This document shows, one piece after another, positions 10,368 through 54,480 of a DNA stretch of 59,458 nucleotides. Position numbers and translations under genes: made by a program. The stretch covers positions 1 through 59,458 of the IMG/VR virus record IMGVR_UViG_3300042542_000678, one strand, 5' to 3'. The stretch's first letter is position 1. Every line of letters begins with the position of its first letter. Below the pieces are notes generated by a model. The model saw only the letters and a list, made by a program, of their open reading frames with translations. It was not told where the DNA came from and searched no databases. The DNA comes from a virus (lineage: Duplodnaviria > Caudoviricetes).

Positions 10368-11816
10368 TCACTTACGAGAAGCAAGTCCTCTTTTAGCTTT
10401 AACTGCTGGTTTGTTTTTCTTTGTAACGAAGCCGCCTTTAGCAAGTCCTTCTCCTGCCCCAATACCACCACCTTCGTTTCCTGCGCCAGTAGTACCCCCA
10501 CTGTAACCACTGTCAGCGCCTGTATTGCCACTGTAAGCACCTTGCGATTCCAAGCTAGTATCTACTTCAGGACCAAAGTTTGTTGTAGTAATATCTGGTG
10601 CGCTTACAGGACTACTAATTGCGCCAGTATTTTGAACAGCAACAGCTTCATTTTCTGCTGCAACGGTAAGGCCAGAATTATTCACACTTTCGGCAGCAAT
10701 GGCAGCAGCCACACCTGCTTGTGCAGCGGATGTAGCGTTTGCTCCACCAAGCGTAGCGTTGGCAGCGGCTTGTGCAGCAGCAGCAACAGCTTCCGAAGAA
10801 TATCCAGCAGCAACGGCAGCGGCAGCAGCAGCAGTGCCAGCATTAGCAGCTTGACCACCTGTGCCTTGAGGGCCAGCGGTGGCAGGTGTAGCACCGCCCG
10901 GAATACCCATTTCATTACCATCTACAATTCCTTGTACCACATCAGCCGCATCTTTTGCATAACCTTTATTTAATGTATCATTCATTTGTCTTCCAACAAG
11001 TCCAAGCAAAGGAACACCTGTTACCAGCCCAATTACCGTACCAAGAATACCAGCCTGTGTATTAGTAAGACCAGTATTAGCGGCAGTTACAACGCCTGTG
11101 TTACTAATACTTGGAACAGCACCACCTTGTGATGTCCCCGGTGCTGGTCCGCTTGTTGGACCATCTCCCCCACCGCCGGTATCGACAGTTTTACCAGCGG
11201 CTGCTTTTGCAGCCACAGCAGCAGGGTCTTCTATAGTTGGAAGAATACCCTTCTTAGCGATATAACCAGCAGGAACAGCCAGTAATGGTTTTCCATTTAC
11301 ATGCGGAATATAAATGGTGTTACCAGACTCGTTGGTCATGGTCACCATCTCAAACCCTTTAATTGGGGATGACTTATACAAAGGTGCGTTAGCGGGATCA
11401 ACATAACCACCCTCAGCAAAGGCTGGCTCTTCAGTGCCCATGTCTTCGTTCATAATGGAATCAACTTCAGCACCAAATGTTTCATCGTCCATTTCAGACT
11501 CACCACCATGAAGAGCTTCAGCATTAGGTACTTCTTCAGCGTTACCCATCTGCCCAATCTCTTCCATCTTTTTCAAGCCTTCTTTGGCTTTGTCGCGCAT
11601 CTTCATGAGCGTAGAAAGACCAATGTATCGAGTAACATCAGCAGGGAAAATAAACTCACCTTCACTTATTTGTGCATCAATGTCATCACGCACTTCTTCT
11701 TGCAAAGCACCGGGAGGTACATCATTGCCAGACACGGGGTCTACTGTGTTGCCCTCTTGCATTACGCCGCCTTCAGCAAGCATGCGATCTGTTTCAGTTG
11801 TGTACATTGATTTCAT
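10368..11816 (-). CDS. Virion-associated protein, conserved N-terminal domain plus Gly/Ala-rich tail (start may be 11807)
   Basis: DPVSGNDVPPG...DDIDAQISEGEFIFPADV motif; between portal and scaffold; three xAxGG motifs. Confidence 0.6.
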   Translation of the reverse strand: MKSMYTTETDRMLAEGGVMQEGNTVDPVSGNDVPPGALQEEVRDDIDAQISEGEFIFPADVTRYIGLSTLMKMRDKAKEGLKKMEEIGQMGNAEEVPNAEALHGGESEMDDETFGAEVDSIMNEDMGTEEPAFAEGGYVDPANAPLYKSSPIKGFEMVTMTNESGNTIYIPHVNGKPLLAVPAGYIAKKGILPTIEDPAAVAAKAAAGKTVDTGGGGDGPTSGPAPGTSQGGAVPSISNTGVVTAANTGLTNTQAGILGTVIGLVTGVPLLGLVGRQMNDTLNKGYAKDAADVVQGIVDGNEMGIPGGATPATAGPQGTGGQAANAGTAAAAAAVAAGYSSEAVAAAAQAAANATLGGANATSAAQAGVAAAIAAESVNNSGLTVAAENEAVAVQNTGAISSPVSAPDITTTNFGPEVDTSLESQGAYSGNTGADSGYSGGTTGAGNEGGGIGAGEGLAKGGFVTKKNKPAVKAKRGLASRK

Positions 11817-12009
11817 CCTTCAGATATTTAAGTTGCCTTAGTGCGCCAATTGCACCTTGCGCTTTAAAGACATCACTCATTTCATTTGATTGTTCCAGCT
11901 TACGCCGCTGCTGTTCAATTTGATATTCAAGCATTTCAACAAATGCATCCCACTGATGGGGAGCAGTGAGCATCCCCTTCAGCTTTGGTAGATATGTCTT
12001 ATCGCTCAT
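11794..12009 (-). CDS. Small conserved protein downstream of portal
   Basis: 71 aa helical, FKAQG.I..LR.L motif, coupled to portal. Confidence 0.65.
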   Translation of the reverse strand: MSDKTYLPKLKGMLTAPHQWDAFVEMLEYQIEQQRRKLEQSNEMSDVFKAQGAIGALRQLKYLKDEINVHN

Positions 12010-14087
12010 GCCATCGGAGCCTGTGGAGGTGCAGCAGAGAAGCCTTGTTCGCCCGGAACTGGAGCAGCGCCAACACCAATGTTGCCACCACCACCACCAG
12101 ACATGTCAGCAACGCCCGGAGGTCCACCAACGCCTTGTGCTGGAACGCCACCGGCAGGAGGAGGTGTGGCACCAGATGTCTGTTGCAACAGAATGGCTTG
12201 CTTAGCTGCTTCTTCCATATTGTTAGTGACACGATCAGGGTCTAAGTCCATGCTCTTAGCAATTTCACGGATAATGTATGGGAACTTAGCAAACGGCATC
12301 AGAGATGGCTGGCTAGCTATCTGCAAGAATTGCATTAGACGCTGGCTGCGAACTTCATTTGCCATCAAGCTTTCAGTGCCACGAGCGTTAACTTCCAAGT
12401 CACCTTTAATCTCAGGGTCAAAGTCAAACTGCATGTTGAAGTTAAAGAATGCTTTACCCATTGGGCTAATAAGATAGTCATCAATGTTTTTAATGACAGT
12501 CTTTATTGAGCCACCGGCTGCGTTCATCAACATAGAAATGCCAGACGCTGTACGGCCTACACCGGACACTCCAGTTTGTCCGTGAGCAAACGATGGCATG
12601 CCAGTGGATTCATCAGCAAGCTGACGCGCCTTGTCAAACATCTGCATGTTTTCTTGAGACACGTTTGGAAACTTTGTACCGAAGATTGCTTGGCCGGGAG
12701 CGCCACCCTGACGGCGAAATACTTTGCCGGGATATACAGACATGTCTTGACCGGGCACCATGTTGGTTTCATCAACCTCAAAGATTAGATTGCCAGACAA
12801 GACGGCGTTATCAACGCCCATCCGCATGAAGCCATTCATCAATGTTTGGGTATCGTCCATGTTCTCAGCAACACCAACACCAGCAAGTGAGTATGGGTTC
12901 AGTTCGTATGGAGTTGCGTAGTAGGGAATACGAGATGGTTTAAACGGATTAAGGACAAGACGAATAATCTTGCCGTTGCAATACCAGATGTTGGCTTGCA
13001 TCTCATCACCGTCATCAAACTCTTCAGGAACATCAATCTCGTTTTCTTTGAGCAGTTCAATGGTGACATTGCCCCAATACTCCAACACTTCAAAACGATC
13101 AACTCCATAGTTCGGAGCGTAGTCTTTCAGATCGTCTTCCCAATACTTTTTAACATAGGACTCACCCTGCTCAATGAGTTGGTCAATGACATTCTTGCGG
13201 AAATGTGGACGGCGTTTCAGAGCGCGAAGCTGAGTGCGCGACATCTTGTGTCGTTCAATAATATACTGACAATCTTCTGTGTTGCTAGCGTCAGGGTCCC
13301 AATAGAAGTTCCAAAGAGAAACATGCGAACCCTCTGGTACAGTTTTGATTACTGGCTTGTACTCGCCTTGATCTGTCCAGTTTGGATATTCTTTGTTGAC
13401 TGCAAACGGACCCTTCATAACGCCTGTACCAAACAGTGCCATTTCAAATGCCGTAGCGCGAAGATGCTTACTCGCTCCACTCTCATCTAGCTGGTCATGG
13501 ATTTTCTTCTCCATCTTCTTAGCAGCCACCATAGCTGGACTAAATGTAAGTGACGATGGTGTAACGCCCGGACCCTTCTTAAGACCTTTAACATCCTTAA
13601 GGTCTTCTTTCAAAGCACCAAGCATATCTTCAATATTGTCTAAGCTGAAGTCTTTGCCAATGCTTGCAGAACCCTCATCGCCAAAAGGAATGGAAGGAAC
13701 ACTAGGAGCAGCAGCAGGGTCAAAATGTACAGCTTCAAGAACACCATCTGGTAAAACAGAAGGGTCGATGCTTAACGGGAACTTGTTGTTAGAAAACAAC
13801 ACATCTGTAATCTGACCATAGGCAGCAAGCGTTTTAGTCTTTGTAACCTTTACAAACACCCTGCTCTTTTCAGTAGAAGTAAACTGTACATCAGCACCAT
13901 ACAAACCACGATAGTTCCGATAAGCTTTGAGCCAACGAGTTTCATCAGATCGGCGGCTTTCTTCAGAACGACTAAATCGTTTCTCAATAAAGCTAAGCAA
14001 ACTATCCCCCTTGAAATCATCTGCTTTTTTAGAAGCATCATCAAGGGCTAATGACTTATCATTAGAGGGTTTATCAATTAGTGCCAT
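12006..14087 (-). CDS. Portal protein
   Basis: 693 aa after TerL; RTASGISMLM, K.VIKNIDD motifs typical of podovirus portals. Confidence 0.9.
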   Translation of the reverse strand: MALIDKPSNDKSLALDDASKKADDFKGDSLLSFIEKRFSRSEESRRSDETRWLKAYRNYRGLYGADVQFTSTEKSRVFVKVTKTKTLAAYGQITDVLFSNNKFPLSIDPSVLPDGVLEAVHFDPAAAPSVPSIPFGDEGSASIGKDFSLDNIEDMLGALKEDLKDVKGLKKGPGVTPSSLTFSPAMVAAKKMEKKIHDQLDESGASKHLRATAFEMALFGTGVMKGPFAVNKEYPNWTDQGEYKPVIKTVPEGSHVSLWNFYWDPDASNTEDCQYIIERHKMSRTQLRALKRRPHFRKNVIDQLIEQGESYVKKYWEDDLKDYAPNYGVDRFEVLEYWGNVTIELLKENEIDVPEEFDDGDEMQANIWYCNGKIIRLVLNPFKPSRIPYYATPYELNPYSLAGVGVAENMDDTQTLMNGFMRMGVDNAVLSGNLIFEVDETNMVPGQDMSVYPGKVFRRQGGAPGQAIFGTKFPNVSQENMQMFDKARQLADESTGMPSFAHGQTGVSGVGRTASGISMLMNAAGGSIKTVIKNIDDYLISPMGKAFFNFNMQFDFDPEIKGDLEVNARGTESLMANEVRSQRLMQFLQIASQPSLMPFAKFPYIIREIAKSMDLDPDRVTNNMEEAAKQAILLQQTSGATPPPAGGVPAQGVGGPPGVADMSGGGGGNIGVGAAPVPGEQGFSAAPPQAPMA

Positions 14088-14130
14088 GTATTTTCCACAT
14101 TAAATTTATTGTACCGTTGAAGGTATACCA

Positions 14131-15708
14131 TCAATAACCCATAACAGGGTCTGCAATAATCATTCCAGATTGAGAAGTTAGTGGGTTATAATCAAATAAT
14201 CCGCTACGAGGACGGCTCATAAGCCCATAACGAAGGGCATCATAGGTGTGATCATTGCTCACTTTAGTGTTGATATCCTCTGGATTCACCTTACTTAAGG
14301 GCAATGTAGGGAGGTCACCAATGATCTGAATACATGTGTTAAAGAATGTAATGCGTGGATTTTCAGTAAAACCATCCACTTGCAAGCGCCTATGCACCTC
14401 ATTCTTACCAGCAACACGGCTACCAGAGCTACGATCAGCGGGTCGCCAGCGGCATCCCTTCATAATCATACGCTCTGCAATGGATGGACCAGTGTCGCCA
14501 CGCTTATGCCAGCAACTACTGTCCAATACACCATATCTAATCTTCTCATTACTTTCAAGATTCAAAATCTTGACGGCTAAATCCTCTGCTAGCACCTTGC
14601 TAACGTACAATTCTCGATATACCACCACAGAATCGTCAGGAGCTACAGCAAACCACAGCACAGCGCTGTAACTTCCGTAGCCATAGTCGCAACTTCTGAA
14701 TCTAGGCCAGCTATGTGGTATTTCGTAGGGTTCAACAACGTGAATCGCCCTGTTAAACTCAGAGAAAGCTGCACCTTCTGCAATATCCCAGTTGCCATCA
14801 AGCAATTGCTTGCGTTGATGCTCTGGAAGGGACAGCAGCATGGCCTCATAGTCACCAGACTCAGCCAAATACGGGTTATCTGACAGCTTTGCTGGTATAA
14901 ACTTGCGTTTAAATAGCGCTTCACCCTCTCTGCTATGCCCTTTAGGGAATCTCATCACCTCGCCTGTCTCAATATCGGTGGCAAGGAACGATTTATTCGG
15001 TGGAGAAGGAAGAATAAACATCTTCCTAACCCATTGGTGGCCGGGACCACCCGGATTCGTAGTGGCTCTCATGTACAAAGGCAGATCATGAGCAGCAGTA
15101 CGCAGCCGTGAACGCATATAGTTGTACGCAAAGGGGGTTGCCCACTGTGTAAGCTCATCAAAAGCTATGTACGAGAAGCTCAAACCCTGATATCGCATAA
15201 CGTCTTCATCTCTATCGAGGTAAGACATCCACAATCTAGCGCCCGAAGGAGCTTGCCACTGCATCTTTCGCTCACTCCACTTGATGCCGGGATATATCTT
15301 TGGATACATCTCCTGACTTTTCCAAATCAGTTCACGAAGTTCCTCAGTAGTGTGGCGTAGAACAAGTCCAGAAAACTGTGGATGACCCATGTAACGCAAC
15401 GGGTCTGCTAAAATCGCATAACTCTTACCACCACCAGCAGAGCCACCATACAATACTTCACGCTCTGGCGCTGCTAAGAAAGAAGTCTGTGGGCCAGCAT
15501 TAGGCTTGAAGATGATGTTCTGTAATTCAACTACGGGTGCTGCTGTCGCTGAAGGTATTTCTGATGGCTCCGTAACGATCTGTGGTAAAGAAACTTTCTT
15601 GGCCGGTGCCTGTTCTTTTTTCGTACTCTTCCGCTTTCTTAAGGGCTTCTTCGTACCTGTCGGCAAGCTTTCTATAAGTAGACGATTTTCGTTTGTGGGA
15701 CTGCTCAT
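14131..15708 (-). CDS. terL: Terminase large subunit
   Basis: Walker A GGSAGGGKS, Walker B IAFDE, TTNPGG motif, RNase H-like nuclease (DYG...DHTYDALRY). Confidence 0.95.
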   Translation of the reverse strand: MSSPTNENRLLIESLPTGTKKPLRKRKSTKKEQAPAKKVSLPQIVTEPSEIPSATAAPVVELQNIIFKPNAGPQTSFLAAPEREVLYGGSAGGGKSYAILADPLRYMGHPQFSGLVLRHTTEELRELIWKSQEMYPKIYPGIKWSERKMQWQAPSGARLWMSYLDRDEDVMRYQGLSFSYIAFDELTQWATPFAYNYMRSRLRTAAHDLPLYMRATTNPGGPGHQWVRKMFILPSPPNKSFLATDIETGEVMRFPKGHSREGEALFKRKFIPAKLSDNPYLAESGDYEAMLLSLPEHQRKQLLDGNWDIAEGAAFSEFNRAIHVVEPYEIPHSWPRFRSCDYGYGSYSAVLWFAVAPDDSVVVYRELYVSKVLAEDLAVKILNLESNEKIRYGVLDSSCWHKRGDTGPSIAERMIMKGCRWRPADRSSGSRVAGKNEVHRRLQVDGFTENPRITFFNTCIQIIGDLPTLPLSKVNPEDINTKVSNDHTYDALRYGLMSRPRSGLFDYNPLTSQSGMIIADPVMGY

Positions 15709-16350: not shown

Positions 16351-16362
16351 TTTATTCTTTCG

Positions 16363-16698: not shown

Positions 16699-16700
16699 GT

Positions 16701-18059: not shown

Positions 18060-18518
18060 TCATTTCTTAGCTTTCTGTGTTGGTGGTACTGAAGCGCCAC
18101 AGTTTGCCATGATCATGCCGCCTTTGGCATACTTTTTAGCCATGCCACCTTTGTTAAAATCCATAGCATCTGATTCACGATCAGCAGCTTTTTGAATGCT
18201 GTCGCGCATACTTTCGCTACTCATTGGTCTTTTCTTATTGGCATCAATTCTGTTTTCAACTTGCTTCTTGCTGAGTGAACCTTCGCGTTCTTTCTCTTTC
18301 AAAGACTTAACTGTTTCTTTGTTTTCTGATCTGCGTTCAAGTTCCATTTTAGAATAGTACTTATCGTCCGTTTCACCTGATTTGGCAATGGATTCAAGCT
18401 CAGCCTTTTTCTTTGAAACCATTTCCCTCATTTTAGTTAGATGCTCAACCTCAGATTGCACAGCGCCGGTAGCATCTTTCTTAATTGCCTTTGCTGCAAA
18501 TTTACCTAGAATAGACAT
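18060..18518 (-). CDS. Lys/Glu-rich hypothetical protein with xxKGG motifs
   Basis: 152 aa ORF in coupled cluster; FNKGG and YAKGG. Confidence 0.65.
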   Translation of the reverse strand: MSILGKFAAKAIKKDATGAVQSEVEHLTKMREMVSKKKAELESIAKSGETDDKYYSKMELERRSENKETVKSLKEKEREGSLSKKQVENRIDANKKRPMSSESMRDSIQKAADRESDAMDFNKGGMAKKYAKGGMIMANCGASVPPTQKAKK

Positions 18519-18520
18519 GA

Positions 18521-18691
18521 TTATTTACCCTTCTTAGCTATTGGCTTAGCAGCTGGCTTAGCAACACCAATCATGATGGCAATAGCTGGCTTACCACCCT
18601 TGCCCTCTTTAGCCATACACTTACCGGCAGCTTTACATTTGGCTGGTGTAGGGCATCCCTCACAAGGTTTAAACGCTTTCTTAGTAGCCAT
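18521..18691 (-). CDS. Small Lys-rich protein with four Cys (not in ORF track)
   Basis: MATKKAFKPCEGCPTPAKCKAAGKCMAKEGKGGKPAIAIMIGVAKPAAKPIAKKGK; fills the gap between neighbours. Confidence 0.7.
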   Translation of the reverse strand: MATKKAFKPCEGCPTPAKCKAAGKCMAKEGKGGKPAIAIMIGVAKPAAKPIAKKGK

Positions 18692-18693
18692 TA

Positions 18694-18984
18694 TCATTTA
18701 CCTTTCTTAGCCGAAGTGGGTTTCTTAGCCACACCACCCTTAGCCATCATTGGTGTCTTCATTGCATAACCACCACCCATCATCTTTGTCTCTTTATGCT
18801 TGGCTGTGCGGCTACCCCTTACAGGCAACATTGCACCACCCTTGTTCATTGTAGGCTTAGCAGCTGCTTTCTCAACAGCGTTGGCTTTGTCGAGATAGGT
18901 GTTACGGACAGCTTGTGGCAAGCTCTTGTCTTCAGCCATCTTACGGAATCGTGCAGCCATTTGTTCAGGAGTTTCAGTAGCCAT
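18694..18984 (-). CDS. Basic hypothetical protein with repeated MxKGG motifs
   Basis: MNKGG, MMGGG, MAKGG. Confidence 0.7.
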   Translation of the reverse strand: MATETPEQMAARFRKMAEDKSLPQAVRNTYLDKANAVEKAAAKPTMNKGGAMLPVRGSRTAKHKETKMMGGGYAMKTPMMAKGGVAKKPTSAKKGK

Positions 18985-18998
18985 TATATTTCTTTCAA

Positions 18999-23965: not shown

Positions 23966-24394
23966 ATGGCTAAAACAATTATCCCTGTCACTGCTGGTGT
24001 ATCAACATGGGGTGAGAGTGCAGACTGTACAGTCAGGGCACTAGCTAACAGCACTGGTCTACGATATGGCAATGCCCATAACATACTGCGTCAACATGGC
24101 AGGAAAGACAAGCGAGGCTGCACCTGTAATGTGTGGCACGATGCATACATTTCCAATGGCATGTCACTGGTAGGTGTCTACGGCACAACCAAAGGGGCAC
24201 GATACCTAGCGAAGAAGATATCTGTTGTGGCACAGAATGGCACAACCCTTGGCAGCATATTGCCTAAGCTTACAAATGGCAGCTACATAGTCATCATTAC
24301 ACGGCATGCATTGGCTGTGGTCAATGGTGGTGTCGTTGACATGAATTTAAATCGGTCTAACAGCCGTGTCATTGCAGTGTATAAACATTCCTGA
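23966..24394 (+). CDS. Putative papain/C39-like cysteine peptidase-fold protein
   Basis: DCTVRAL (Cys) and RHALAVVNGGVVD (His, Asp) motifs. Confidence 0.45.
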   Translation: MAKTIIPVTAGVSTWGESADCTVRALANSTGLRYGNAHNILRQHGRKDKRGCTCNVWHDAYISNGMSLVGVYGTTKGARYLAKKISVVAQNGTTLGSILPKLTNGSYIVIITRHALAVVNGGVVDMNLNRSNSRVIAVYKHS

Positions 24395-30001: not shown

Positions 30002-30069
30002 CTAGTGTAGTACTTGATGCACATCATTTAAGTATGGTGTGCATTGACAACAACACAAGGGGTATATGT

Positions 30070-30900
30070 ATGGATAAAGACTATGCAATTGGCATGTTCA
30101 TTGGCACAGCTATCGGTGATGCGCTTGGCGCACCGCTAGAATTTACACAGCCAAACACAGGGCATCCGCTCACTGAGATGGTGGGTGGTGGCGCTCACGA
30201 TACTGCTGTTGGTGAGTGGACAGATGACACAGCCATGATGGTATGCATTGCCGATGCGTACATCAACTTCAAAACCTTTTCACCGAAGGTGATTGCTAAT
30301 AATTTCGTTGATTGGAAACGCTACGGCACACATGGTACTCGTGACTATTGCTTTGACATTGGCCGTACAACATCTGATGCACTGTCGAGCATTGAGAAGT
30401 CCCGCATCTATGGTGGCAGCACAGACTACAAGACCAGCGGCAATGGTTCTATCATGCGAATGGCAGCTAATGTTATGGTCAATCATCGATGCATGGCACT
30501 GGCTATTGGTGAGTCTGTTGCGACAGCACTGATTACACACGGCACAAAAGACACTGTGCAATATGTATCGGCACTGGCTGAAGAGCTTCATCGTGGCAGC
30601 AGACTGTCTTGCTATGATGGTCTGCGTGTCAAAGGTGCAGCAAAGCCTGATGGTTCTGTGATGGGCTGCTATGCTTCAGCATGGGATAGCATTGCTCGTA
30701 CAACAAGCTTTAAAGACGCTGTTGTACATGCCATCAACAAGGGTGGTGACGCTGACACAGTGGGTGCTGTCACTGGTATGATTGCTGGCCGTATCTATGG
30801 CTACTCTGCCATCCCTCAGCGCTGGCTCGACAAGCTGGTCAAGCATGATGAGTTGCTTGTCATGGCAAACGATTTGTACTATCTGTACGAAGGAGAATGA
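30070..30900 (+). CDS. ADP-ribosylglycohydrolase (DraG/ARH family)
   Basis: GDALG.P.EF, WTDDT, DIG.T, GNGS.MR and GGDADT motifs. Confidence 0.92.
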   Translation: MDKDYAIGMFIGTAIGDALGAPLEFTQPNTGHPLTEMVGGGAHDTAVGEWTDDTAMMVCIADAYINFKTFSPKVIANNFVDWKRYGTHGTRDYCFDIGRTTSDALSSIEKSRIYGGSTDYKTSGNGSIMRMAANVMVNHRCMALAIGESVATALITHGTKDTVQYVSALAEELHRGSRLSCYDGLRVKGAAKPDGSVMGCYASAWDSIARTTSFKDAVVHAINKGGDADTVGAVTGMIAGRIYGYSAIPQRWLDKLVKHDELLVMANDLYYLYEGE

Positions 30901-38295: not shown

Positions 38296-38709
38296 ATGAC
38301 TGAAGAAGTTAAGGCTATCAAGATCAAGGCAGATGTGTTTTGGTGTCAGCATGACAAGATTAATGAGATGAGTGGCAAGTTCCAACTCAACCTGTGCAAT
38401 CTTTCTGACGCAGCTGTTGCTGCGTTTGAACAGATGGGCATCAGTGTGCAGATCGGTGAAGACAAGAAAGCCGACATGGGTAAATACATCACATGCAAAT
38501 CTGAGAAGCCTATTCGGGTATATGATACAGATGGTGATGAAGTTACTGGACAGATCGGTAATGGCAGCAAGTGCAAAGCGCTAGTTGGTAGTTACGATTG
38601 GACATATAAAAACAAGAAGGGTGTTAGCCCTGCACTGCGTAAGGTTGTCATTACTGACTTGGTTGAATATGCCGCTGGTGGCAACCTTGATGATGAAGAT
38701 ATTCTTTAA
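38296..38709 (+). CDS. Single-stranded DNA-binding protein (gp2.5-like)
   Basis: IGNGS motif, acidic C-terminal tail, position after polymerase. Confidence 0.7.
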   Translation: MTEEVKAIKIKADVFWCQHDKINEMSGKFQLNLCNLSDAAVAAFEQMGISVQIGEDKKADMGKYITCKSEKPIRVYDTDGDEVTGQIGNGSKCKALVGSYDWTYKNKKGVSPALRKVVITDLVEYAAGGNLDDEDIL

Positions 38710-45123: not shown

Positions 45124-48100
45124 TTATCGTCTAGTAGCTAGGCCACCTCTTGCAAGCTTGGGAGTCATCTCCCTCACCTTCTGCAATGACAGCTTTCGTT
45201 TGTCTTCTTTTATTGCGGGTGTGCCAGTAGCATTGTCTGTTGCTGAAAACTCACGAAGTCTATCCCGCAGTTCCAACAGGTTCTTAGCTTTTTGAGTTGC
45301 CCCAACACTTCTAAGAATGTCAGCAACATCTGGCAGTTTATCAACAACGCCTCCGTGAAAAGCATCATCAATAAATTGGTCAATGCTGGATTGATATTGC
45401 TGACCTGTGCCAGAGCGAACAGTACCCTTAGACATGTTCATATAGTCATTCATTAAGTTACGAACAGCCGTGTAGGACTTATAAGCAAACTTAGCAGATT
45501 CTCTTTCATCAAAAGAATCTAAAGCATTGTCCATTAACTCTTTCAATTCATCTCGTGTTTTAATTATTTCAGCTTTTGGTTTAATGCCAATAAGTGCCCT
45601 GTTAAAAACTTCATCTTTAGGGTTAAGAGCTTTCAGTTTAACATTGTTACCTTTAACACTAAGCTTATTAGCTTCAATTATCATATCTTCTGTTTCATTA
45701 AATCCAGCGCGTGGCAATGATATTGGACGAACAAAGTCTGGCACACCAGTAACAGCACGAATAATAGTGTTCATATCCTTAGCATCATATCCCTTTGGTG
45801 GCATGTTGATGCGAGAGAACTTGTAATCAGCATATGGAATATCAGTATACATAAAGTTATCTACATTGCGCCCACCAAAAGAATTGGCATTAAATCCAAG
45901 ATTCAAATCTTTTGTAAATGAAGGACCACCCACATTCATTTCAAAATGTCCAGTTGTACTTCTTGTTGGGTCATAGAATCCAGACCTATTAAGCTTTTCC
46001 ATTTTCTCTGGTAGACCACCATGATACAAGCGAATGGGTGGAACATCTTTATACTGTTCACGCAATTGTTCAAGCTTGTTTTGTAGCCGCATAGCCATGT
46101 CTTTAGCTTCAGCCATTCCCTCTTTAGTCTTAGGTGAAAGTTCTACATTATACTTTGCACGATATTCGCCTAACAATGTACCAAGAACTTCATCATCAAT
46201 GGTAGCAAAGTTGATGTCATCTCGTAGCCTGAAGAAAGAATCTTCTCGCTTGTTCCTAATCTCTTTAATGATTGCATTGCGCTGAGTAACAGAAGTTTTA
46301 TTAACTTGTTTGTTCAAGTCGCCTATATAAATCTTATCGATCTTTTCTTCAGATAGTGATAGTCTTGGTTTAAGGAATGCTTTAATATCTGATATTGAGT
46401 CGCCTATTGGATTTCCATTATCATCGTACAAAACTTCATCCGTCAAAGATGTAGCGCTATCATCTGTCTTCTTACCAAACGGATTTGCTGGCATCTCATT
46501 CCATTTAACACCAGCAGCTTGACCAGTGTACGAGTGAGCAGTACTCATGTAGTCATCGTAGTTGGCAATCTTCCAGTTCTTAACAAACTCTGGAGTGTAG
46601 TTCTCAGCCATCAGCTTTTCACCAGCGGCGTACTGATCAGGGGTAAAGCCACCAGTGGGCGGTATGACATCATCAAGCTGCTTAGAAGCATCTTGCAAGT
46701 CATCTGCCAGATTAGGCATAGGAGCGGTTTCAACAGCAGCAGCAGGGGGAGGCATGACCTCTTCCATTTGACTCGCCATAGGGGCTTCTGGCTCGATTGG
46801 TGGCACTGGCTCAGAGGCAGCAACAGTCTTCTTGGCAGCAGCCTTCTTAACTGTTGGGATAGCTGTAGTTGTTTGAGGAGCAACAGCTGGTGTTGGTAGA
46901 TTCTTATTAAGAATGTTATCAATAGTAGAAGTATCTACAGGAATGTCAGGAGTGTTTATTGTTCTGAGCCTAGATAAGAAGCCTTGAACTGGAATGTTAG
47001 AGGCTGCTTTACCAGCAAACTTAGATGCCATACCACCAACAGCAAACCTTAAGTCACCAAGCATTGCCTTATATGCGTCAACTTGCATATAGTCATTGGC
47101 TTCTTCAAGCGTCTTACCTTGATTGTCTTTGGCATATCGTTCATTAATAACCTTACGCTCATCACTGGTAAGCTTATTAAATTGCATCTTCTTAACACGA
47201 AGAAGATCATCACTCATAAACTTAGCATCGGTAATATCCCGTGCTATGCTAGTCATTTCGCTAACAGAATTACCAAGCGCCATCTTCTGTTCTGTTGGGC
47301 TTAGTTTCTGATATCGCTCATCATTCATTGCCCGTTTAATTGTTTCAATAACTAATGGGTTTGCCGTTTCAACAAAGGCACGATCATAGCTCTTGTCACC
47401 AGACGAAGGACCATACAGCTTGTATGGGTCAATACCAAGTCTAACGATTTCAGATTCAGCAGGAGTCTTTGCTGGAGTTTCACGGACACCCACCAAGCTG
47501 TAGAAGAACTCACCTTCTTTGTACACTGGACCATCACGCAAGCGAGGAACAGCTTCAGGTAAGCTCTCTTTAAGGATTGGCAGCTTGCTTTGAACACGCT
47601 GTGCGCCAGCTTCAACCAACGTAGGAACGGGCATTCCCATAACTGTCTTATCACCAGTGATGACATTAGGGTCACGCTGGATAGAGCCTTCCTCACGGAA
47701 CAAATCAAGAAACTCATAGGCACTCTTGAATACAAACGGCTGTGAGAATCGTGCAGTGAAGTCACCCAATACTTTACCAATTGCAATCTCAAGCTTATCT
47801 GCGTCTTTCTCAGAAGACACAGCAGCGAATACCTGATCAAGTAATTGAGCTTGTGTACCAGCTGGCATTTTCATACCAACAATGGCTTCAACCATTTCAG
47901 CTGTCTTTGGCTCAAGGCCAAGCTTGCGTTTGGCTAAGAAGTCAGCAACGGCAAGTGTTGGTCCAAGCGGAAAGATTGAGCGAGTATCATAAGTACCGCC
48001 ATCATCCTTCTTCATATTAAACCAATCAGTGTCTTGGTTGTTTAGACGATAGTCATACGCAGCAGCAAGCGCTGCCGTACCAACAATACCTTTAGCGATG

Positions 48101-50361
48101 TTCTCTTGACCTTGACGAATCAAACCATCACCGGCATTAGAGCCAGAGGCTTTCATAAGTGCGCCACGATAAATGTCTTCTGCTCCAGATGCTGCACCAA
48201 AAACGCTGTAGCGATATTGGAAGGCAATAGCATTAGACATAAAGCGTGGGAAGGTGACAAGTAAACTACCACCGGGAAATTCAGCTGCCTTAACAAATAG
48301 ATTACCAGCTGCTTCCGCACCGGCTTCAAAGGTTTGAATACCTTTCTTCTGCACCTTCGGTGTATACGAGAAGGTTGCCTTCAGAGTTTCGTCTGTAGCT
48401 TGTTGCAAGATAGATGCAGGAATTGCCTTGCCTTCACCAATTACCTGATACATGTCCATACCAGCACGGCGCATGTGCTTCTCAACAGCAGCGTTAAAGA
48501 TTGCTTTACGGAAGAAAGCATCCTGTGCTACGTTCAATGTGTTAAAGACTTGAGCAGCTTTAGAAAGCTGGTTAGTAGAAGACTCCTGTGTAGCGCTCAA
48601 TAGATTGTTACGCAGAGCAGGATTGTGCTGAAGCAAGTTGTTCGTCACTTCAGTGGACAAACCATTCTTAGCCATATATCCATACACGCTGAATGCGTCA
48701 CGGAATGTATCACCAAGACTGCTCATTGCTGTCTCAACACGCTTACCGCTGGCGGCACCATCCAGTGTTCTGCCAACAGTGTACATTGCCCCTTCAATCA
48801 ACGATCCTGCTGAACTGTAAGTAAGGCCGACTGATGTACCCATAATGTTACGCACTGTAGTACCAATGCCGCTAACAACAAATGCTTTTGATTCACGCTC
48901 TACTGTTCGTATAACTTGACCGATACGCCCAAGGGCAGATACATATTCATCTGGTTTATTAAACAAGCCATCGACAATCTTAGCAGCTTCAGGGTCAATC
49001 TGAGTCATGCGAGTAAGAATCTTAGACGCAGCAGAATATTGCTGCATCACACGAGCAGCATCGGAAACAGTCATCAAGTTTGCTTGTGCAAATTGCTCAA
49101 CACTCAGTCCTTCTCTACGGATGGCTTGTTCAAGAACAGCATCGTCAATGGTGTCTAGATTTGAGAAGACGCTGGCGATAGCGTCACTTGTTTTTTGATT
49201 GGGCTTTAAACGAAAGGTTGGGTCAGCATCAATGACATGCATTGCCACCCGTACAGCACGAGCAGACAAATCACTTTGAATCTTTGAATCAGTTAATGCA
49301 GTGGCAGGGTCAATCTCATCTAAAATCCTACGACCTTCTTGTTTGTTAAACTGAGACACAAGCTCATCCATGTTTTGTGAAATAGGATCAGCAACCATTC
49401 TCTCAAACTCTGTGACAGGAGCATTGGGGTCTTTAGGTACTTTAGCCTTGAGAAGCTTTTCACTAAACTGTTCAGCACCAGACTTACCACCGGTTATAGC
49501 AAGAGCGCCACGGCCTTCAAGGAATCCACCAACACTACCAAACAATGCTGCCACACCTAATTGTGCAGGGTCAAGGTCTTTTGGTTCTTCACGCATTGCC
49601 TTAGCAACTTCTTGCTTCTTCTTTTGTTCAATTACGTTTTGACCAACAGCAAGGCCAGCTTCTGTAGCTGTAGTGACAGCAGTGATGCCAGTAGGTGTAA
49701 GCAAGCTAGCAATCTTAGACTTGGCAGCAGCCTCACCAGCCTCACCAATGATAGCTTTAGTAGCAAGCTCTGTAGCTTCTTTAGCAGCCTTCTTCTTTAA
49801 ACCAGTACCAACACCAAAACCAATATAGTTTGTCAGGTCAGTCAATGCTGCTTTAGCAATGTCTACATATGGACCAGCACCCGGTTGACCACCTTTAGTA
49901 CCAGCGCTTGCAATCTCATCATACAGACGATTACCAAGTGCCAGCTTCTCTTGATCTGGCAAGGGAGAGTTTCGCAGCTTGTTCAGCGCAGCAACATTAG
50001 AGAATGTATTCCATTCTTCACCACGCATGTTAGCCATGAAGCTGTTAACAAACTCTTTCTTGTCAGTGCCTTCCTTGTATGTGGAGTTCATTGCCACTTT
50101 AGAATAGTCAGTGATGACCTTAAAGATTTCGGGATTGCTATACAACTCATCGTAAGTAAACTTAGGCTTGTTGCGCTCAGCTTCTGCTTCTGCGCGGACC
50201 TTCTGAGCAGCATCATCCCTACGAAACGGGCGTGACATCGTGCCAAAGGCTGGCTTAGTTAGATCAACTTCTGGTGCAGGTGGCTTTGCTGGAATTAAAT
50301 CAGCATAGGTGTCTGCACCACCGGCTTTAGCAGCGGGTATCAAATCAGCATAATCAGCCAT
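45124..50361 (-). CDS. Large internal virion (ejection) protein with possible C-terminal ART-like domain
   Basis: 1745 aa, last late gene, mostly helical; RLYHG...PSFT...ETE near the C-terminus. Confidence 0.7.
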   Translation of the reverse strand: MADYADLIPAAKAGGADTYADLIPAKPPAPEVDLTKPAFGTMSRPFRRDDAAQKVRAEAEAERNKPKFTYDELYSNPEIFKVITDYSKVAMNSTYKEGTDKKEFVNSFMANMRGEEWNTFSNVAALNKLRNSPLPDQEKLALGNRLYDEIASAGTKGGQPGAGPYVDIAKAALTDLTNYIGFGVGTGLKKKAAKEATELATKAIIGEAGEAAAKSKIASLLTPTGITAVTTATEAGLAVGQNVIEQKKKQEVAKAMREEPKDLDPAQLGVAALFGSVGGFLEGRGALAITGGKSGAEQFSEKLLKAKVPKDPNAPVTEFERMVADPISQNMDELVSQFNKQEGRRILDEIDPATALTDSKIQSDLSARAVRVAMHVIDADPTFRLKPNQKTSDAIASVFSNLDTIDDAVLEQAIRREGLSVEQFAQANLMTVSDAARVMQQYSAASKILTRMTQIDPEAAKIVDGLFNKPDEYVSALGRIGQVIRTVERESKAFVVSGIGTTVRNIMGTSVGLTYSSAGSLIEGAMYTVGRTLDGAASGKRVETAMSSLGDTFRDAFSVYGYMAKNGLSTEVTNNLLQHNPALRNNLLSATQESSTNQLSKAAQVFNTLNVAQDAFFRKAIFNAAVEKHMRRAGMDMYQVIGEGKAIPASILQQATDETLKATFSYTPKVQKKGIQTFEAGAEAAGNLFVKAAEFPGGSLLVTFPRFMSNAIAFQYRYSVFGAASGAEDIYRGALMKASGSNAGDGLIRQGQENIAKGIVGTAALAAAYDYRLNNQDTDWFNMKKDDGGTYDTRSIFPLGPTLAVADFLAKRKLGLEPKTAEMVEAIVGMKMPAGTQAQLLDQVFAAVSSEKDADKLEIAIGKVLGDFTARFSQPFVFKSAYEFLDLFREEGSIQRDPNVITGDKTVMGMPVPTLVEAGAQRVQSKLPILKESLPEAVPRLRDGPVYKEGEFFYSLVGVRETPAKTPAESEIVRLGIDPYKLYGPSSGDKSYDRAFVETANPLVIETIKRAMNDERYQKLSPTEQKMALGNSVSEMTSIARDITDAKFMSDDLLRVKKMQFNKLTSDERKVINERYAKDNQGKTLEEANDYMQVDAYKAMLGDLRFAVGGMASKFAGKAASNIPVQGFLSRLRTINTPDIPVDTSTIDNILNKNLPTPAVAPQTTTAIPTVKKAAAKKTVAASEPVPPIEPEAPMASQMEEVMPPPAAAVETAPMPNLADDLQDASKQLDDVIPPTGGFTPDQYAAGEKLMAENYTPEFVKNWKIANYDDYMSTAHSYTGQAAGVKWNEMPANPFGKKTDDSATSLTDEVLYDDNGNPIGDSISDIKAFLKPRLSLSEEKIDKIYIGDLNKQVNKTSVTQRNAIIKEIRNKREDSFFRLRDDINFATIDDEVLGTLLGEYRAKYNVELSPKTKEGMAEAKDMAMRLQNKLEQLREQYKDVPPIRLYHGGLPEKMEKLNRSGFYDPTRSTTGHFEMNVGGPSFTKDLNLGFNANSFGGRNVDNFMYTDIPYADYKFSRINMPPKGYDAKDMNTIIRAVTGVPDFVRPISLPRAGFNETEDMIIEANKLSVKGNNVKLKALNPKDEVFNRALIGIKPKAEIIKTRDELKELMDNALDSFDERESAKFAYKSYTAVRNLMNDYMNMSKGTVRSGTGQQYQSSIDQFIDDAFHGGVVDKLPDVADILRSVGATQKAKNLLELRDRLREFSATDNATGTPAIKEDKRKLSLQKVREMTPKLARGGLATRR

Positions 50362-51767
50362 TACAAATCCTGACCTGTGGTTTGTTTAAATCGTGCTTTA
50401 ACAGCAGCGGAATCAGCGCCTCCACTAATTGCAGCATTTGCTTTTCTACGCTCCTCTTGTATATTAACTTGAGGTGCTGCCTCTGTCCTACCACCACTTG
50501 ATGATGGGGGCAATGCTGGTGCAGCCGGTGCTGGTGTAGTTGGAGCAGCTTCTTGCATTTGTGCTGGTGCTTTAAAGCTATTCAATACGCTAGCAACATC
50601 CCTATTGATTGGCATGCCCTTGCTGTCGGTATACAACGACAAAGCAGTTTGGGCAGCACTGGCTTGCAAATCAAGAATAGCTTTACGAGTGGTGGCATCT
50701 GTTCCAACATAGCTAAATCGGGTGCTACCATCTGCATTTTCAATAATAGCAAGTTGTTTTGATTTAAGCAAATCACCATACTTCGCAGCAAGTGCGCGAC
50801 CAACAGCAGCGCCGGTAAAGGTATTAAGCGTAGACAGGTTTGGAACCTTACCTTCACCATCATCTCCACGAACTTTCTTAGCCTCAGCCTCACGGCGTTC
50901 AAGCTCCCATATCCTAAGCAACTCTGTGTCAGCGCGTTTCTTTTCTTCAGGAGTTCCATTTAAAGAAGCGTTCTTAAGAGTGACAATCCTTTCAGAGAAT
51001 TTTACCTGTTCGCTACTCATACTATCTTTAATACTATTAACAATTGCCAAGTCTGCTTGTGCCAATTTAGTGGCAGTAGGGTCATTATTTTTAGTAGCTA
51101 AAAGAATCCTAGCCTTAGCATCATCTTCTTGTTGAGCAAAAGTCTTCGGAGGACGAAGCTTAGACATATCGTATGTAGCATTAACCTCAGCTGTTGGACG
51201 AACAAATCCCTGTGCCGCTTTAAGACGCTCAAGCGGAACACCAAGCGCCTGTGCCTGTTCAAGCATGGCTTTCTCTTTAGCAGAGCCACTAGACTTACTC
51301 AGCATATCCCTGATGATGTTGCCAGAAGAAGGCTCAAGCTGTTTAGTAATTGTATCCCTAGCGGCAGTAGGAAGAACAGACAACATCTTGACGCGCTCAA
51401 GAGCGGTGGCTGTTGATGAGTTGTCGTTTACAACCTTGGCAAAGTTACCAAGCTTAAAGCTTCCAGCATCAAAGCCATCCTTCTTGATGTAGTCAGTAAT
51501 CGAAGTCATGACAGGTGCGCTAGTAGCAACAGCGTACAACTCACTCTCACTAGCTGTTGGGTCATACGTCTTCAAGATGTTAATGTTGTTGACTAGCTCT
51601 GCTTCTTTCTTTTTATTATCTTCAACTACAGTTTTGTAATTGGTATAAAGATTCTTAACAGCCTCAGTTCCTCTAAGCTCTGCAAGCTTTCGTTCTTTTT
51701 GAATGTCATCAACAGCAGCTTCAGCAAAGCCACCAGCGAATGAGCTTAAATTAAATCCCATTTGCAT
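50361..51767 (-). CDS. Probable internal virion protein
   Basis: Starts FNLSSFAGGFA, helical, in the ejectosome position. Confidence 0.6.
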   Translation of the reverse strand: MQMGFNLSSFAGGFAEAAVDDIQKERKLAELRGTEAVKNLYTNYKTVVEDNKKKEAELVNNINILKTYDPTASESELYAVATSAPVMTSITDYIKKDGFDAGSFKLGNFAKVVNDNSSTATALERVKMLSVLPTAARDTITKQLEPSSGNIIRDMLSKSSGSAKEKAMLEQAQALGVPLERLKAAQGFVRPTAEVNATYDMSKLRPPKTFAQQEDDAKARILLATKNNDPTATKLAQADLAIVNSIKDSMSSEQVKFSERIVTLKNASLNGTPEEKKRADTELLRIWELERREAEAKKVRGDDGEGKVPNLSTLNTFTGAAVGRALAAKYGDLLKSKQLAIIENADGSTRFSYVGTDATTRKAILDLQASAAQTALSLYTDSKGMPINRDVASVLNSFKAPAQMQEAAPTTPAPAAPALPPSSSGGRTEAAPQVNIQEERRKANAAISGGADSAAVKARFKQTTGQDL

Positions 51768-52269
51768 TCTCCATTGTTGTAGGCTTACGCGCCATCAATC
51801 CAGACAATTCAACAACAGGCGCTGCTATTTCATCTGCTGTAGTTTCTTTCTTAGCCATTGCTTTTTTAATAGCAGCATTAATAACTCGTACAGGTATCTG
51901 TGTATCATCAGGATCAGCAGGGAATATTGTGTATTCAACCTTGTGTATTTCAGCAACAGTCTTCAGCATCTCAATGATGACAGGCATAACCAATAGGCCA
52001 GCATCAATTGTATGAACACCAGCAGCAACACCAGAAAGCATTAAGGCTTCTGCCATAGAAGCCAAAGGAACTTTTGTTTCAACTACGTCTAGCGTACTAT
52101 TAATAACATCAGGGGAAGATAGTTTATCAATATACTTTTGAGCAATCTCATCAGTCTTAACAAGCTTAGGCGGGTTTAACCAATTGTGACTCTTAGGCAT
52201 ATCTGTCCAAGAACCACCAATCGGTACTGGTTTAATGACATCAACTGGTGAAAGATCATTTGCGGCCAT
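51751..52269 (-). CDS. Conserved virion-region protein
   Basis: P.PG.S.T-like start, G.HTID motif, GLMARK near the C-terminus. Confidence 0.65.
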   Translation of the reverse strand: MAANDLSPVDVIKPVPIGGSWTDMPKSHNWLNPPKLVKTDEIAQKYIDKLSSPDVINSTLDVVETKVPLASMAEALMLSGVAAGVHTIDAGLLVMPVIIEMLKTVAEIHKVEYTIFPADPDDTQIPVRVINAAIKKAMAKKETTADEIAAPVVELSGLMARKPTTMENANGI

Positions 52270-52468
52270 TGGTCATTTCCTCTTTAGCTTTACGAATACC
52301 ATAAACAAATTGAGCAATGACATCAAGCTCACTACGCTTCTCATTACCACTGTCTTTCTCAGGCATCCTTGACGAAAGAAATCCTTTAGACTTTGGTTTG
52401 TTTTCTTTAGAAGATTGTACAGCAAGTATTGCTTCAATTTTATCAATATAGCTTTTAATGTGTTTCAT
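52256..52468 (-). CDS. Small hypothetical protein
   Basis: 70 aa, KGFLSSR. Confidence 0.6.
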   Translation of the reverse strand: MKHIKSYIDKIEAILAVQSSKENKPKSKGFLSSRMPEKDSGNEKRSELDVIAQFVYGIRKAKEEMTNGRK

Positions 52469-52473
52469 AATAC

Positions 52474-54480
52474 TTACCAGCCTTTAATAACTTCATACGC
52501 AAGCTTTCCCCAAGCAGCATTGCTAGCGGCATCTGCTGTTGTTTCTGCCGCTGACACGGCAGCAGACTTGTTGATAGACGCAACCGCTAAGTCCCTAATC
52601 CTGTCCTTCTCGCTTTCGCCTGTCTTGAATGAGTATGATAACAGATCACGATATGTTTGTGATAGCTGTGCATATGAGGCAGAGGATAAGTCTGAAGCAT
52701 TCTTAGCATTGATCGCATTAGCTGCATTAATGGCAGCAGTGTTTGCTGTTGAAATGTCAGCCAATATTTTAGCGTTAGCTACATTAATCTCAGCAGACAT
52801 GCGTGAGTTAAACTCAGAACGATCATTAGCTTCTTGTGCGTTAAACTTAACCAACTCATTAGCAGCATTCAGATTTGCAACCCTAACCTTGTTGGTTTCA
52901 GAAGCATTATATTGCTGAGCAGTGAGAGCAAGTGTAGCAGATATCTTATCGGCTTCCAGTTTATTGCTGGCATTAGTTGCAGCAGCAGCATTGGCGTAGC
53001 CAGCATCACTGGTCAACGAATCAGCAATTGCCTTTGCTTTAAACACAGAAGTTTGCTGTGCAATGTCAAGATTCTTGAGGTCCATGTTCAAGAAAGCTTT
53101 GGCATTATCAACAGCAACAAGTTGTCGATTGTTTAGATTAGCTGTTTCAAGAGAAGCAACCTGTGCTGCTTCAGCAAGCTGCATAGCATTACGCGCTGAC
53201 AGATTGGCAATGTTTGTAGTGCTGGCAATACGGGCATTCTCAAGAGCAATGGTGACAGTGGCATCAAAGTTCTTGTTAGCAATGTCGCTGATTGTGGCAG
53301 CATTCTTAACACGAGTTTGAAAAGCTTGATCAAACTCTTGCCCAAGAAAAGCAGCACGTTGCTTACCAAGATCAAGGGCAATAGCCTGTCGATTGGACAA
53401 GTTCTGTAAAGCCATTGTCTCTTGTATCTTTGCATCAGCAGCAGCAATCGGTGACGCAGCCTCAAGCGTTGCTTGAATAATTGCTTGACCAGCCATGCTG
53501 GAAGCGCCAACACCACGAGCAGCCATCAGTGCTGTAGCTGCTCTCATAGAAGCAGCAGCCCATGCGGGTGGCTTACCAGCGTCAAAGTTTGTCAGCAGCT
53601 TATTAAGCTGACCTTGTACAGTCATCTCTTCAGCAACAACACCCTGAGCAGCCTGAGTCTTAGCAAGGCTTTCTTCAACCTTTGCCATATCAACAGCAGG
53701 ACCAGCCACCATTTCACCAGCTTGCACTGTACGCTCAGCAACTGGAGCGACAGTAGTGGCTGTTGCCTGAGCAGCTTCAACACCGCCAACGGCAGTGGTT
53801 GTTGGCTCTTGTGTGACGGCTTTTGCCGTTGCTGCATCAGATACAGCACCCTGCACAGCTGGCATAGCAGCCAAACTTTCAGCAACAGAAGGAGCAGCAA
53901 ATGTTGGAGCAACAGTGGCAGCAGTCACTGGAGCAGAAGGAGCAGCAGTGGCGGCTTCAGCAATCTGTGCTGGTATAGCTTGTGCAGCAGCTGGTGCTGT
54001 AGGAGATGCTATTTTCATTGCATCCGTAACAGCGGTTGTTGCTGCTGTATAACCCGGCGCAGTAGTCAGCACTGGAGCGCCAGCGTCTGGTGCAACAGTT
54101 GAGATTGGTGTAGTTATTAGCTTAGGAGGAGTGGTTGGTGGTCCTGATCTTGGAACTTGAATACGTTCACCCGTTGGTGAATATGCGTATACCATTCCCT
54201 CATTTGGTATCACCGCTGTATAAGCCCCCATAGGAGGGGCATCGTAGCTATAGCCTTCTGGTAAAACATTACCACCCTCAGCATACTTACGCATCGGAAC
54301 TTTGGCGACAACCATACCACCCTTAGCCATACGCTCTGCAAACTTAGAAGTTACAGCAGCATAGCGTTGAGCGTCAGAAGGTGTAGATGCAAGATACTCA
54401 TCGAACATCTGCATTGGACCATCATAGCCCATCTTACGAGCTACAATCTCTTTTTGTTTTGCTGTAAAGTTTTCAGCCAT
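52474..54480 (-). CDS. Probable internal virion protein (Ala/Gln/Asn-rich coiled coil)
   Basis: TVQGQL..L...F..G.PP.WA, NLSNRQ repeats; MAKGG and YAEGG motifs. Confidence 0.65.
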   Translation of the reverse strand: MAENFTAKQKEIVARKMGYDGPMQMFDEYLASTPSDAQRYAAVTSKFAERMAKGGMVVAKVPMRKYAEGGNVLPEGYSYDAPPMGAYTAVIPNEGMVYAYSPTGERIQVPRSGPPTTPPKLITTPISTVAPDAGAPVLTTAPGYTAATTAVTDAMKIASPTAPAAAQAIPAQIAEAATAAPSAPVTAATVAPTFAAPSVAESLAAMPAVQGAVSDAATAKAVTQEPTTTAVGGVEAAQATATTVAPVAERTVQAGEMVAGPAVDMAKVEESLAKTQAAQGVVAEEMTVQGQLNKLLTNFDAGKPPAWAAASMRAATALMAARGVGASSMAGQAIIQATLEAASPIAAADAKIQETMALQNLSNRQAIALDLGKQRAAFLGQEFDQAFQTRVKNAATISDIANKNFDATVTIALENARIASTTNIANLSARNAMQLAEAAQVASLETANLNNRQLVAVDNAKAFLNMDLKNLDIAQQTSVFKAKAIADSLTSDAGYANAAAATNASNKLEADKISATLALTAQQYNASETNKVRVANLNAANELVKFNAQEANDRSEFNSRMSAEINVANAKILADISTANTAAINAANAINAKNASDLSSASYAQLSQTYRDLLSYSFKTGESEKDRIRDLAVASINKSAAVSAAETTADAASNAAWGKLAYEVIKGW

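Follow-up and report, generated by a model that had tools for sequence, protein, structure and literature searches.

A recurring Gly-Gly peptide on unrelated late proteins of an HMO-2011-type marine podovirus: a possible docking tag for internal proteins

The DNA analysed here (IMGVR_UViG_3300042542_000678, the whole stretch of 59,458 nt, called the window) is a complete genome of an HMO-2011-type marine podovirus. Five of its late proteins carry a short peptide motif, [FYML]-[AN]-x-G-G, which we call the tag. These are the protein of 482 amino acids (aa) encoded behind the portal gene (post-portal protein), two small proteins of 152 and 96 aa, a giant protein of 1745 aa and a protein of 668 aa. 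A previous sequence-only reading had proposed a common signal on unrelated late proteins. This was borne out, as the motif was enriched, selected at the protein level and kept at orthologous positions. For its function, the evidence leans to a capsid-loading tag and away from a cleavage site, and we give about an even chance to the interpretation that the motif is a docking or loading tag for internal proteins. We infer from gene position and by analogy that the tagged proteins lie inside the virion; that the tag has a binding partner, and which one, is likewise inferred.

All 11 pentapeptides listed earlier were recovered at the same positions in the five open reading frames (ORFs) concerned. 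The counts were based on our own uncurated set of the 94 longest non-overlapping ORFs of ≥40 aa (18,750 aa), taken on the coding strand of each gene block. The loose pattern [FYML][AN]xGG matched 15 times, compared with 2.9 ± 1.7 matches expected from per-protein shuffles, which preserve composition (n=2000). The shuffle maximum was 10, and 0 of 2000 shuffles reached 15. The strict pattern [FYML][AN][EKR]GG matched 11 times (0.4 expected, shuffle maximum of 4, 0 of 2000 reaching 11). As the pattern was defined after seeing the sequence, these figures somewhat overstate the significance; the independent test is conservation in relatives, which the motif passed.

The expected excess in late genes was also found: 14 matches lay in the 44 minus-strand ORFs (11,317 aa) and one in the 50 plus-strand ORFs (7,433 aa). 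Four loose-pattern matches were additional to the earlier list, two in other late ORFs, one in the giant protein and one in an early ORF. The early match (YAAGG) was set aside as unrelated, since its ORF encodes a gp2.5-like single-stranded DNA-binding protein (SSB) and the match lies in the acidic tail. For the region around the FAEGG of the tail-fibre ORF, no informative homologue N-terminus was retrieved. The codons of the motif varied between copies (GGT/GGC, AAA/AAG, GAA/GAG), and therefore selection acts on the peptide and not on the DNA. A repeat at the DNA level was rejected for the same reason, as synonymous codons differ among the copies.

The copies were located near termini or next to linkers and domain boundaries, as had been described before (Table 1). 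N-terminal copies were found at residue 13 of the 482-aa protein and at residues 51 and 66 of the 668-aa protein. C-terminal copies were found at residues 458 of 482, 121 and 130 of 152, 80 of 96 and 1736 of 1745. The copies at residue 133 of the 482-aa protein and residue 1106 of the 1745-aa protein precede linkers.

Conservation was checked in six GenBank relatives (MW202701.1, CRP-207, HMO-2011, CRP-1, HTVC033P and HTVC104P) and in five near-complete related records (G001–G005). The motif occurred at orthologous positions of the relatives, and the GG columns were invariant in the alignments. The orthologous sites were residues ~10–13, ~125–133 and the C-terminus of the post-portal protein, residues ~50–66 of the 668-aa family and the last 10 residues of the giant protein. 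Genome-wide enrichment was seen in MW202701.1 (loose pattern: 8 vs 2.0 expected; strict: 5 vs 0.26) and CRP-207 (loose: 7 vs 2.6; strict: 5 vs 0.36). The records G001–G005 had 8–13 matches each, with 2.2–3.0 expected. HTVC104P had degenerate forms of the motif, and the Pelagibacter phage HTVC033P had poly-Gly matches only.

The family counts were made at 80 loci around portal homologues, with members assigned to window proteins by BLAST (E ≤ 1e-5). The motif was present in 44 of 52 members of the post-portal family (117 motifs in 25,489 aa), 19 of 22 members of the 96-aa family and 3 of 4 members of the 152-aa family. It was not equally frequent in other proteins: portal (2 of 74), capsid (0 of 23) and 288-aa scaffold-like proteins (0 of 44) almost never carried it. 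The large terminase family had it in 10 of 76 members, at one unrelated conserved site (YLAEGGDYE). Among the unassigned ORFs, 28 of 694 were positive, many of them small lysine-rich proteins with tandem copies. When all GG dipeptides of ten genomes were compared, the motif accounted for 62 of 209 in the five internal families and for 18 of 670 elsewhere; as the homologues are related and not independent, a Fisher p-value for this comparison is inflated. The five tagged families did not match each other. Each had a different window protein as its best BLAST hit, and they shared no common Pfam or PHROG family.

These results make it very improbable that the recurrence is a by-product of composition or a pattern picked post hoc, with no common function. 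It is true that the pattern was chosen after the fact, that Gly/Ala-rich linkers raise the odds of such pentapeptides and that some matches are clearly unrelated, namely YAAGG in the SSB tail, the poly-Gly runs of HTVC033P and YLAEGG in some terminases. However, composition-preserving shuffles never reached the observed count, orthologous sites with invariant GG columns were conserved, and the abundant conserved structural proteins were all but free of the motif.

The motif is longer than the pentapeptide first described, with a residue after GG that is usually hydrophobic. The wider consensus of 270 distinct instances was approximately [KR]-K-[MFLY]-A-[KE]-G-G-[MLV]-[VA]-K-K, in which the first two core positions were imposed by the search pattern. 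Orthologous columns also accept S, M, E, D or K instead of Ala. Lys was enriched both upstream and downstream of the core, and hydrophobic residues were enriched at the third position ahead of the first Gly. The tag modules were conserved, and the adjoining linkers diverged, resulting in islands of conservation.

Four settings of the tag were found: both ends of the conserved region of the post-portal protein (termed A1), a C-terminal form, the N-terminal module of the 668-aa family and repeats in small basic proteins. In the C-terminal form, the chain ends at a fixed distance of 5–6 residues past GG across different protein families. Examples are LARGGLATRR, LAKGGLASRR, LAKGGLVERR and LAKGGFVSKR, on the giant protein, the post-portal family and others. 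This fixed spacing and the conserved residues after GG are more in line with recognition of a free end than with a fragment that is thrown away. In relatives, small lysine-rich proteins of 64–99 aa had four to five tandem copies, ~10–15 residues apart; such repeats would fit multivalent binding. Separately, the post-portal family was seen to end in a conserved basic tail, K-R-G-[LI]-A-S-[KR]-K (positions 10368–10394 of the minus strand in the window, and 120 database homologues). The tail resembles the GG-L-A-[ST]-R-R end of the giant protein minus one Gly; the actual signal at a free C-terminus may thus be G(G)-L-A-S-R-K.

The post-portal protein carries three tags. From the N-terminus, it consists of a tag (residue 13), the A1 region (residues ~13–185) with a second tag (residue 133), an Ala/Gly/Thr-rich linker, a third tag (residue 458) and the basic C-terminus KRGLASRK. 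The gene order of portal, a 71-aa ORF and the post-portal gene was kept in relatives. The homologue counts refer to the best 120 of at least 7,995 database homologues or clusters, all without names. The first tag was matched in 120 of 120, a count to be read with the search profile itself containing this LAEGG site. The second tag, at the end of the conserved core, was matched at the corresponding distance (100–150 residues on) in 104 of 120. The third tag lies outside the search profile; for 84 of 120 homologues, a match fell in the last 30 residues.

In an alignment of 48 A1 sequences, 32 columns were invariant, including the GG of the first tag. The AlphaFold2 (AF2) model of A1 from these 48 sequences had a mean predicted local distance difference test (pLDDT) of 62 and a predicted TM-score (pTM) of 0.25, with scattered helices and one hairpin. 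A1 is thus highly conserved yet predicted to be non-globular, a combination that suggests a region for binding and not a domain. It may be a chain of linear binding elements that fold on a partner. Neither the 482-aa protein nor the 48 A1 members had a Pfam family above noise, and no Mu F domain was found; no PDB sequence relative of the N-region was obtained below E=1.9. An Atlas search with A1 returned unnamed viral clusters only and a weak lead (0.84) to a crAss cargo protein, which could not be confirmed.

Some post-portal homologues have an ADP-ribosyltransferase (ART-PolyVal) domain N-terminal to A1, with tags at the junction, as would be expected of carriers of injected cargo. Both fused and split post-portal proteins occur: in some relatives, namely G003 (L018 region) and L034–L036, an ORF of ~122–126 aa encodes A1 alone, and another gene encodes the C-terminal body with its tags.

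The 668-aa protein has a conserved N-terminal module of ~70 aa that ends in two tags, followed by a Pro/Ala/Thr linker and a conserved C-terminal body; past the module, the sequences of the family diverge completely. The giant protein has a tag at the junction of body and linker and one at the C-terminus, of the form x-K-G-G-L-[AV]-x-R-[RK] in six of nine aligned homologues. Its C-terminal 500 residues (45124–46650, minus strand) are a separate domain behind a Pro/Ala/Thr linker, for which no Pfam or PDB sequence relative was found. An ADP-ribosyltransferase domain in this part was considered and was unsupported by Pfam, a PDB sequence search and comparison with an ART-PolyVal homologue.

The 96-aa protein has an N-terminal helical part and then two tags, and the GG of tag 1 was invariant in the family alignment. 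The lysine-rich 152-aa protein has two C-terminal tags; its C-terminal 45 residues had no tblastn match in the phage collection. Its last tag runs into a conserved Cys tail (residues 130–152, GG-[YM]-x-N-C-G-A-S-V-P-P). The same tail after a tag was seen in small ORFs of L043, L048, L067, L013 and L020. The 58-aa ORF adjoining the 152-aa gene (18521..18697) is rich in Cys and Lys.

The A1 profile and the tags were found together in ten genomes (the window, G001–G005, MW202701.1, HMO-2011, CRP-1 and CRP-207), and HTVC104P had weak forms of both. Neither was found in HTVC033P, in Sinorhizobium phage phiM6 (first 50 kb of 68 kb) or in Pseudoalteromonas phage Slicky01 (whole genome). phiM6 and Slicky01 keep homologous portal, scaffold-like, adaptor and tail tube B proteins, a 172-aa protein and the 668-aa body, and their counterparts of the 668-aa and giant proteins are without tag modules. 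Tags and A1 thus appear to be an extra, specific to one lineage, on a chassis that these phages have in common. By this comparison, the partner of the tag would be A1 or a lineage-specific pocket in one of the chassis proteins.

If the motif is a docking tag, it would be the core of a short peptide that marks internal proteins of HMO-2011-type phages for incorporation into the procapsid. The tagged proteins would travel inside the head until their ejection. Each would be built of a tag, a flexible linker and a body, or the reverse, and the copies, often in tandem, would provide multivalent binding. The tags would come as a lineage-specific package with the A1 region, which is itself flanked by tags. 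The post-portal protein would be the hub: either A1 binds the tags, or the tagged proteins, the post-portal protein among them, share a single binding site on the shell, the scaffold or the portal. A wider and more tentative proposal, to which we give rather less than an even chance, is a modular cargo-loading system with a portable Gly-Gly tag and a non-globular post-portal hub. It would be encapsulin-like but in an infectious capsid, and would swap injected proteins, including ADP-ribosyltransferase effectors.

A loading tag was favoured over a cleavage site because of the conservation after GG, the fixed C-terminal distance, the four- to fivefold repeats and the lack of a conserved protease. 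In the cleavage alternative, a protease would cut at or after Gly-Gly, either in the maturing head or once the proteins are injected, and so free domains of internal or polyvalent proteins and trim their termini. Gly-Gly does lie at domain boundaries and adjoins linkers, some homologues place it exactly between the ART-PolyVal domain and A1, and the adenovirus protease, which cuts several core proteins at (M/I/L)XGG-X, is a precedent. However, neither the late genes nor the conserved core yielded a protease family. Residues after GG are conserved, the C-terminal tags would release just 5–6 residues, and proteins of 64–99 aa with four to five sites would become pieces of ~10 residues. Moreover, the hydrophobic residue is three before GG, one further than in the consensus of C39 leaders and adenain. 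We consider cleavage unlikely.

The search for a protease gave the following picture. In agreement with the earlier reading, neither Pfam (all 94 ORFs) nor PHROGs (the 44 late ORFs and 7 of the 50 early ones) revealed a classical prohead protease. The only late domains with a peptidase name in Pfam were M15 endolysin and S74 tail-fibre chaperone domains. Two candidates had been named earlier. The first, the N-terminal region of the post-portal protein, did not stand: with no compact fold in AF2 (pLDDT 62, pTM 0.25), no Pfam family and no PDB sequence match below E=1.9, it was rejected as a protease.

The second candidate, an early protein of 142 aa encoded at 23966, stood in part: it resembles a papain-type cysteine peptidase of the C39 size class, but it is not a general partner of the motif. 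The model was of high confidence (pLDDT 87.7, pTM 0.85). As in clan CA, the predicted fold is of papain type and has a Cys-His-Asp triad, in which the Cys opens a helix and the His lies in a beta strand. Foldseek matches were weak (best E 0.04), and papain-type enzymes filled the best rows of an exhaustive VIA structure search. The structural neighbours include double-glycine peptidases, ubiquitin clippases and viral deubiquitinases. The protein is probably a small papain-like peptidase, of a size class whose characterised members cut after Gly-Gly.

It was present in 2 of 15 genomes compared, i.e. in 1 of 14 relatives. BLAST found it in 1 of 11 relatives, and a hidden Markov model search of 2,442 proteins found it only in the window and in G004. 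It had 33 database clusters versus at least 7,995 for the post-portal family. Being rare among the relatives compared and encoded with the early genes, it cannot serve as partner of the motif in general. It may have a local role in the phage of the window, and its target might be a host ubiquitin-like defence or some other substrate with Gly-Gly instead of the virion proteins.

A further alternative is that the motif is a self-associating or DNA-condensing sticker, which would co-condense the internal proteins with each other or with packaged DNA through no specific pocket. The small proteins are lysine-rich with two to five repeats, Lys is enriched on both sides of the core, long Ala/Gly/Thr or Pro/Ala/Thr spacers separate the tags, and A1 is predicted to be non-globular. 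However, the best-conserved copy of the tag, at the A1 start, is acidic (FAEGGMNDE) and unfit for DNA binding, and a defined pocket is suggested by the constant spacing between C-terminal tags and the chain end. The sticker model also overlaps with docking and may be a variant of it. As a separate explanation, we regard it as quite improbable.

Several observations weigh against a docking tag. With the loose pattern, HMO-2011 (4 vs 2.2 expected) and CRP-1 (3 vs 2.7) were at chance level genome-wide; their matches nonetheless fall in orthologous proteins. The shuffle maximum equalled or exceeded the loose count in L001 (8, maximum of 8), G001 (8, maximum of 8) and G003 (8, maximum of 9). The giant protein was without the C-terminal tag in three of nine aligned homologues (HMO-2011, CRP-1 and CRP-207). 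The joint occurrence of A1 and tags tracks the phylogeny and could stand for few independent events, only two or three. The genome encodes a C39-like peptidase fold, and Gly-Gly at domain boundaries also resembles a protease site. The searched literature gave no virion proteomics for this phage group.

The late genes of the window are on the minus strand (1–21,300 and 45,124–59,458), and the early and replication genes are on the plus strand between the two late blocks. The closest named relatives are Puniceispirillum phage HMO-2011 and Roseobacter phages CRP-1 and CRP-207, with some Pelagibacter phages further off. The nearest record was MW202701.1 (73% nucleotide identity over the head genes). 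The post-portal gene is ~1.4 kb upstream of the capsid gene, and the other tagged genes are 9–45 kb away. Tail fibres were also recognisable among the structural genes by Pfam and PHROGs. The 288-aa protein is presumed to be the scaffold, as judged from its position between the post-portal and capsid genes and from its composition; its PHROG match is a family of unknown function.

Table 1. Tagged proteins, motif copies and other features of the window (positions in nt; residues refer to the protein)
Feature	Position	Strand	Basis or remark
Post-portal protein, 482 aa	10368..11816	-	three tags and A1
Tag LAEGG, A1 start	11766..11780	-	motif match
Tag FAEGG, end of conserved core	11406..11420	-	motif match
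Tag LAKGG(FVTKK), C-terminal	10431..10445	-	motif match
Small lysine-rich protein, 152 aa	18060..18518	-	FNKGG 18144-18158, YAKGG 18117-18131
Small basic protein, 96 aa	18694..18984	-	MNKGG 18835-18849, MAKGG 18733-18747
Giant internal-type protein, 1745 aa	45124..50361	-	tags FAVGG and LARGG
FAVGG, body/linker junction of giant protein	47032-47046	-	motif match
LARGG, in the C-terminus LARGGLATRR of giant protein	45142-45156	-	motif match
MNVGG, residue 1475 of giant protein, inside domain	45925-45939	-	motif match, probably not a tag
Internal-type protein, 668 aa	52474..54480	-	MAKGG 54316-54330, YAEGG 54271-54285
FAEGG, residue 47 of tail-fibre ORF 107..1168 (N-terminal region)	1016..1030	-	possibly chance
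LNVGG, residue 8 of holin-like ORF	ORF 54957..55367	-	loose-pattern match
YAAGG, residue 125 of early ORF	ORF 38296..38709	+	loose-pattern match
Early protein, 142 aa, papain/C39-like predicted fold	23966..24394	+	invariant Cys21/His114/Asp125
SU10-type portal protein, candidate tag receptor	12006..14087	-	PF23899 and phrog_332
P22-like major capsid protein, candidate tag receptor	7945..9015	-	phrog_267 and PF25209
Presumed scaffolding protein, 288 aa, highly charged, candidate tag receptor	9380..10246	-	position and composition
Large terminase	14131..15708	-	Pfam/PHROGs
Adaptor	6615..7331	-	Pfam/PHROGs
Tail tube B-type protein	5066..6622	-	Pfam/PHROGs

Two early genes were observed besides. 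A tyrosine integrase gene (31067–32269, plus strand, PF00589) was kept in 8 of 11 relatives, and its presence suggests a temperate lifestyle for the phage group. An ADP-ribosylglycohydrolase gene (30034–30900, plus strand, PF03747, E 8.7e-47) was found in 4 of 11 relatives and is notable in view of the ART-PolyVal domain on post-portal homologues in related phages.

How short-tailed phages choose the proteins that are packaged and injected is poorly understood outside T4. If the docking interpretation is true, the tag would define the injected proteome of a very abundant marine phage group from sequence alone. It would also explain the recruitment of effector domains such as ART-PolyVal, and it would offer an easy means to load foreign proteins into the capsids of podoviruses. 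No description of the tag was found in openly searchable full text, with subscription journals outside this search, and no phage paper was among the listed matches to the literal pentapeptides.

Parts of the tag resemble known systems. Double-glycine leaders of C39 peptidases are N-terminal, end in GG and have hydrophobic residues at −4, −7 and −12. The adenovirus site, like the tag, has a hydrophobic residue ahead of Gly-Gly and is found on several unrelated core proteins. In both consensus sequences, this residue is one position nearer to GG than in the tag. Most copies of the tag are not N-terminal, and no dedicated C39 peptidase co-occurs with the substrates, which separates them from C39 leaders.

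The genes of the minor head proteins SPP1 gp7 and Mu F directly follow the portal gene. The post-portal gene shares this position, variable N- or C-terminal parts and some effector fusions (ART-PolyVal). It differs in having no Mu F or other Pfam domain and a conserved region that is predicted to be non-globular.

In T4, the capsid targeting sequence (CTS) is an N-terminal propeptide of ~10 residues on the internal proteins IPI–IPIII and Alt, which directs them into the prohead. It is sufficient to load foreign proteins and is removed by the prohead protease gp21 (PMC9026906). The likeness is a short peptide common to otherwise unrelated proteins, here presumably internal to the head; diverse cargo can be swapped behind the T4 CTS. 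The T4 peptide is N-terminal and cleaved by gp21, whereas the tags occur at N-termini, C-termini and internal junctions, are often in tandem and have an unrelated sequence, and no prohead protease gene was found.

Encapsulin cargo-loading peptides have ~10 residues and are found at either terminus of several cargos, behind a flexible linker. They bind to a luminal hydrophobic pocket of the HK97-fold shell (PMC7355545). A conserved terminal peptide of ~10 residues with a flexible linker is also present on several of the tagged proteins. The differences are that here the shell is that of a true phage, which has a portal and a scaffold, that tags often occur in several copies, that the hub-like A1 co-occurs with them and that the portal, capsid and scaffold-like proteins are candidate receptors. 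Encapsulin cargo-loading peptides also combine Gly, hydrophobic and terminal basic residues. By analogy, the CTS of T4 would be the closest functional parallel in phages, and the encapsulin peptide the closest architectural one.

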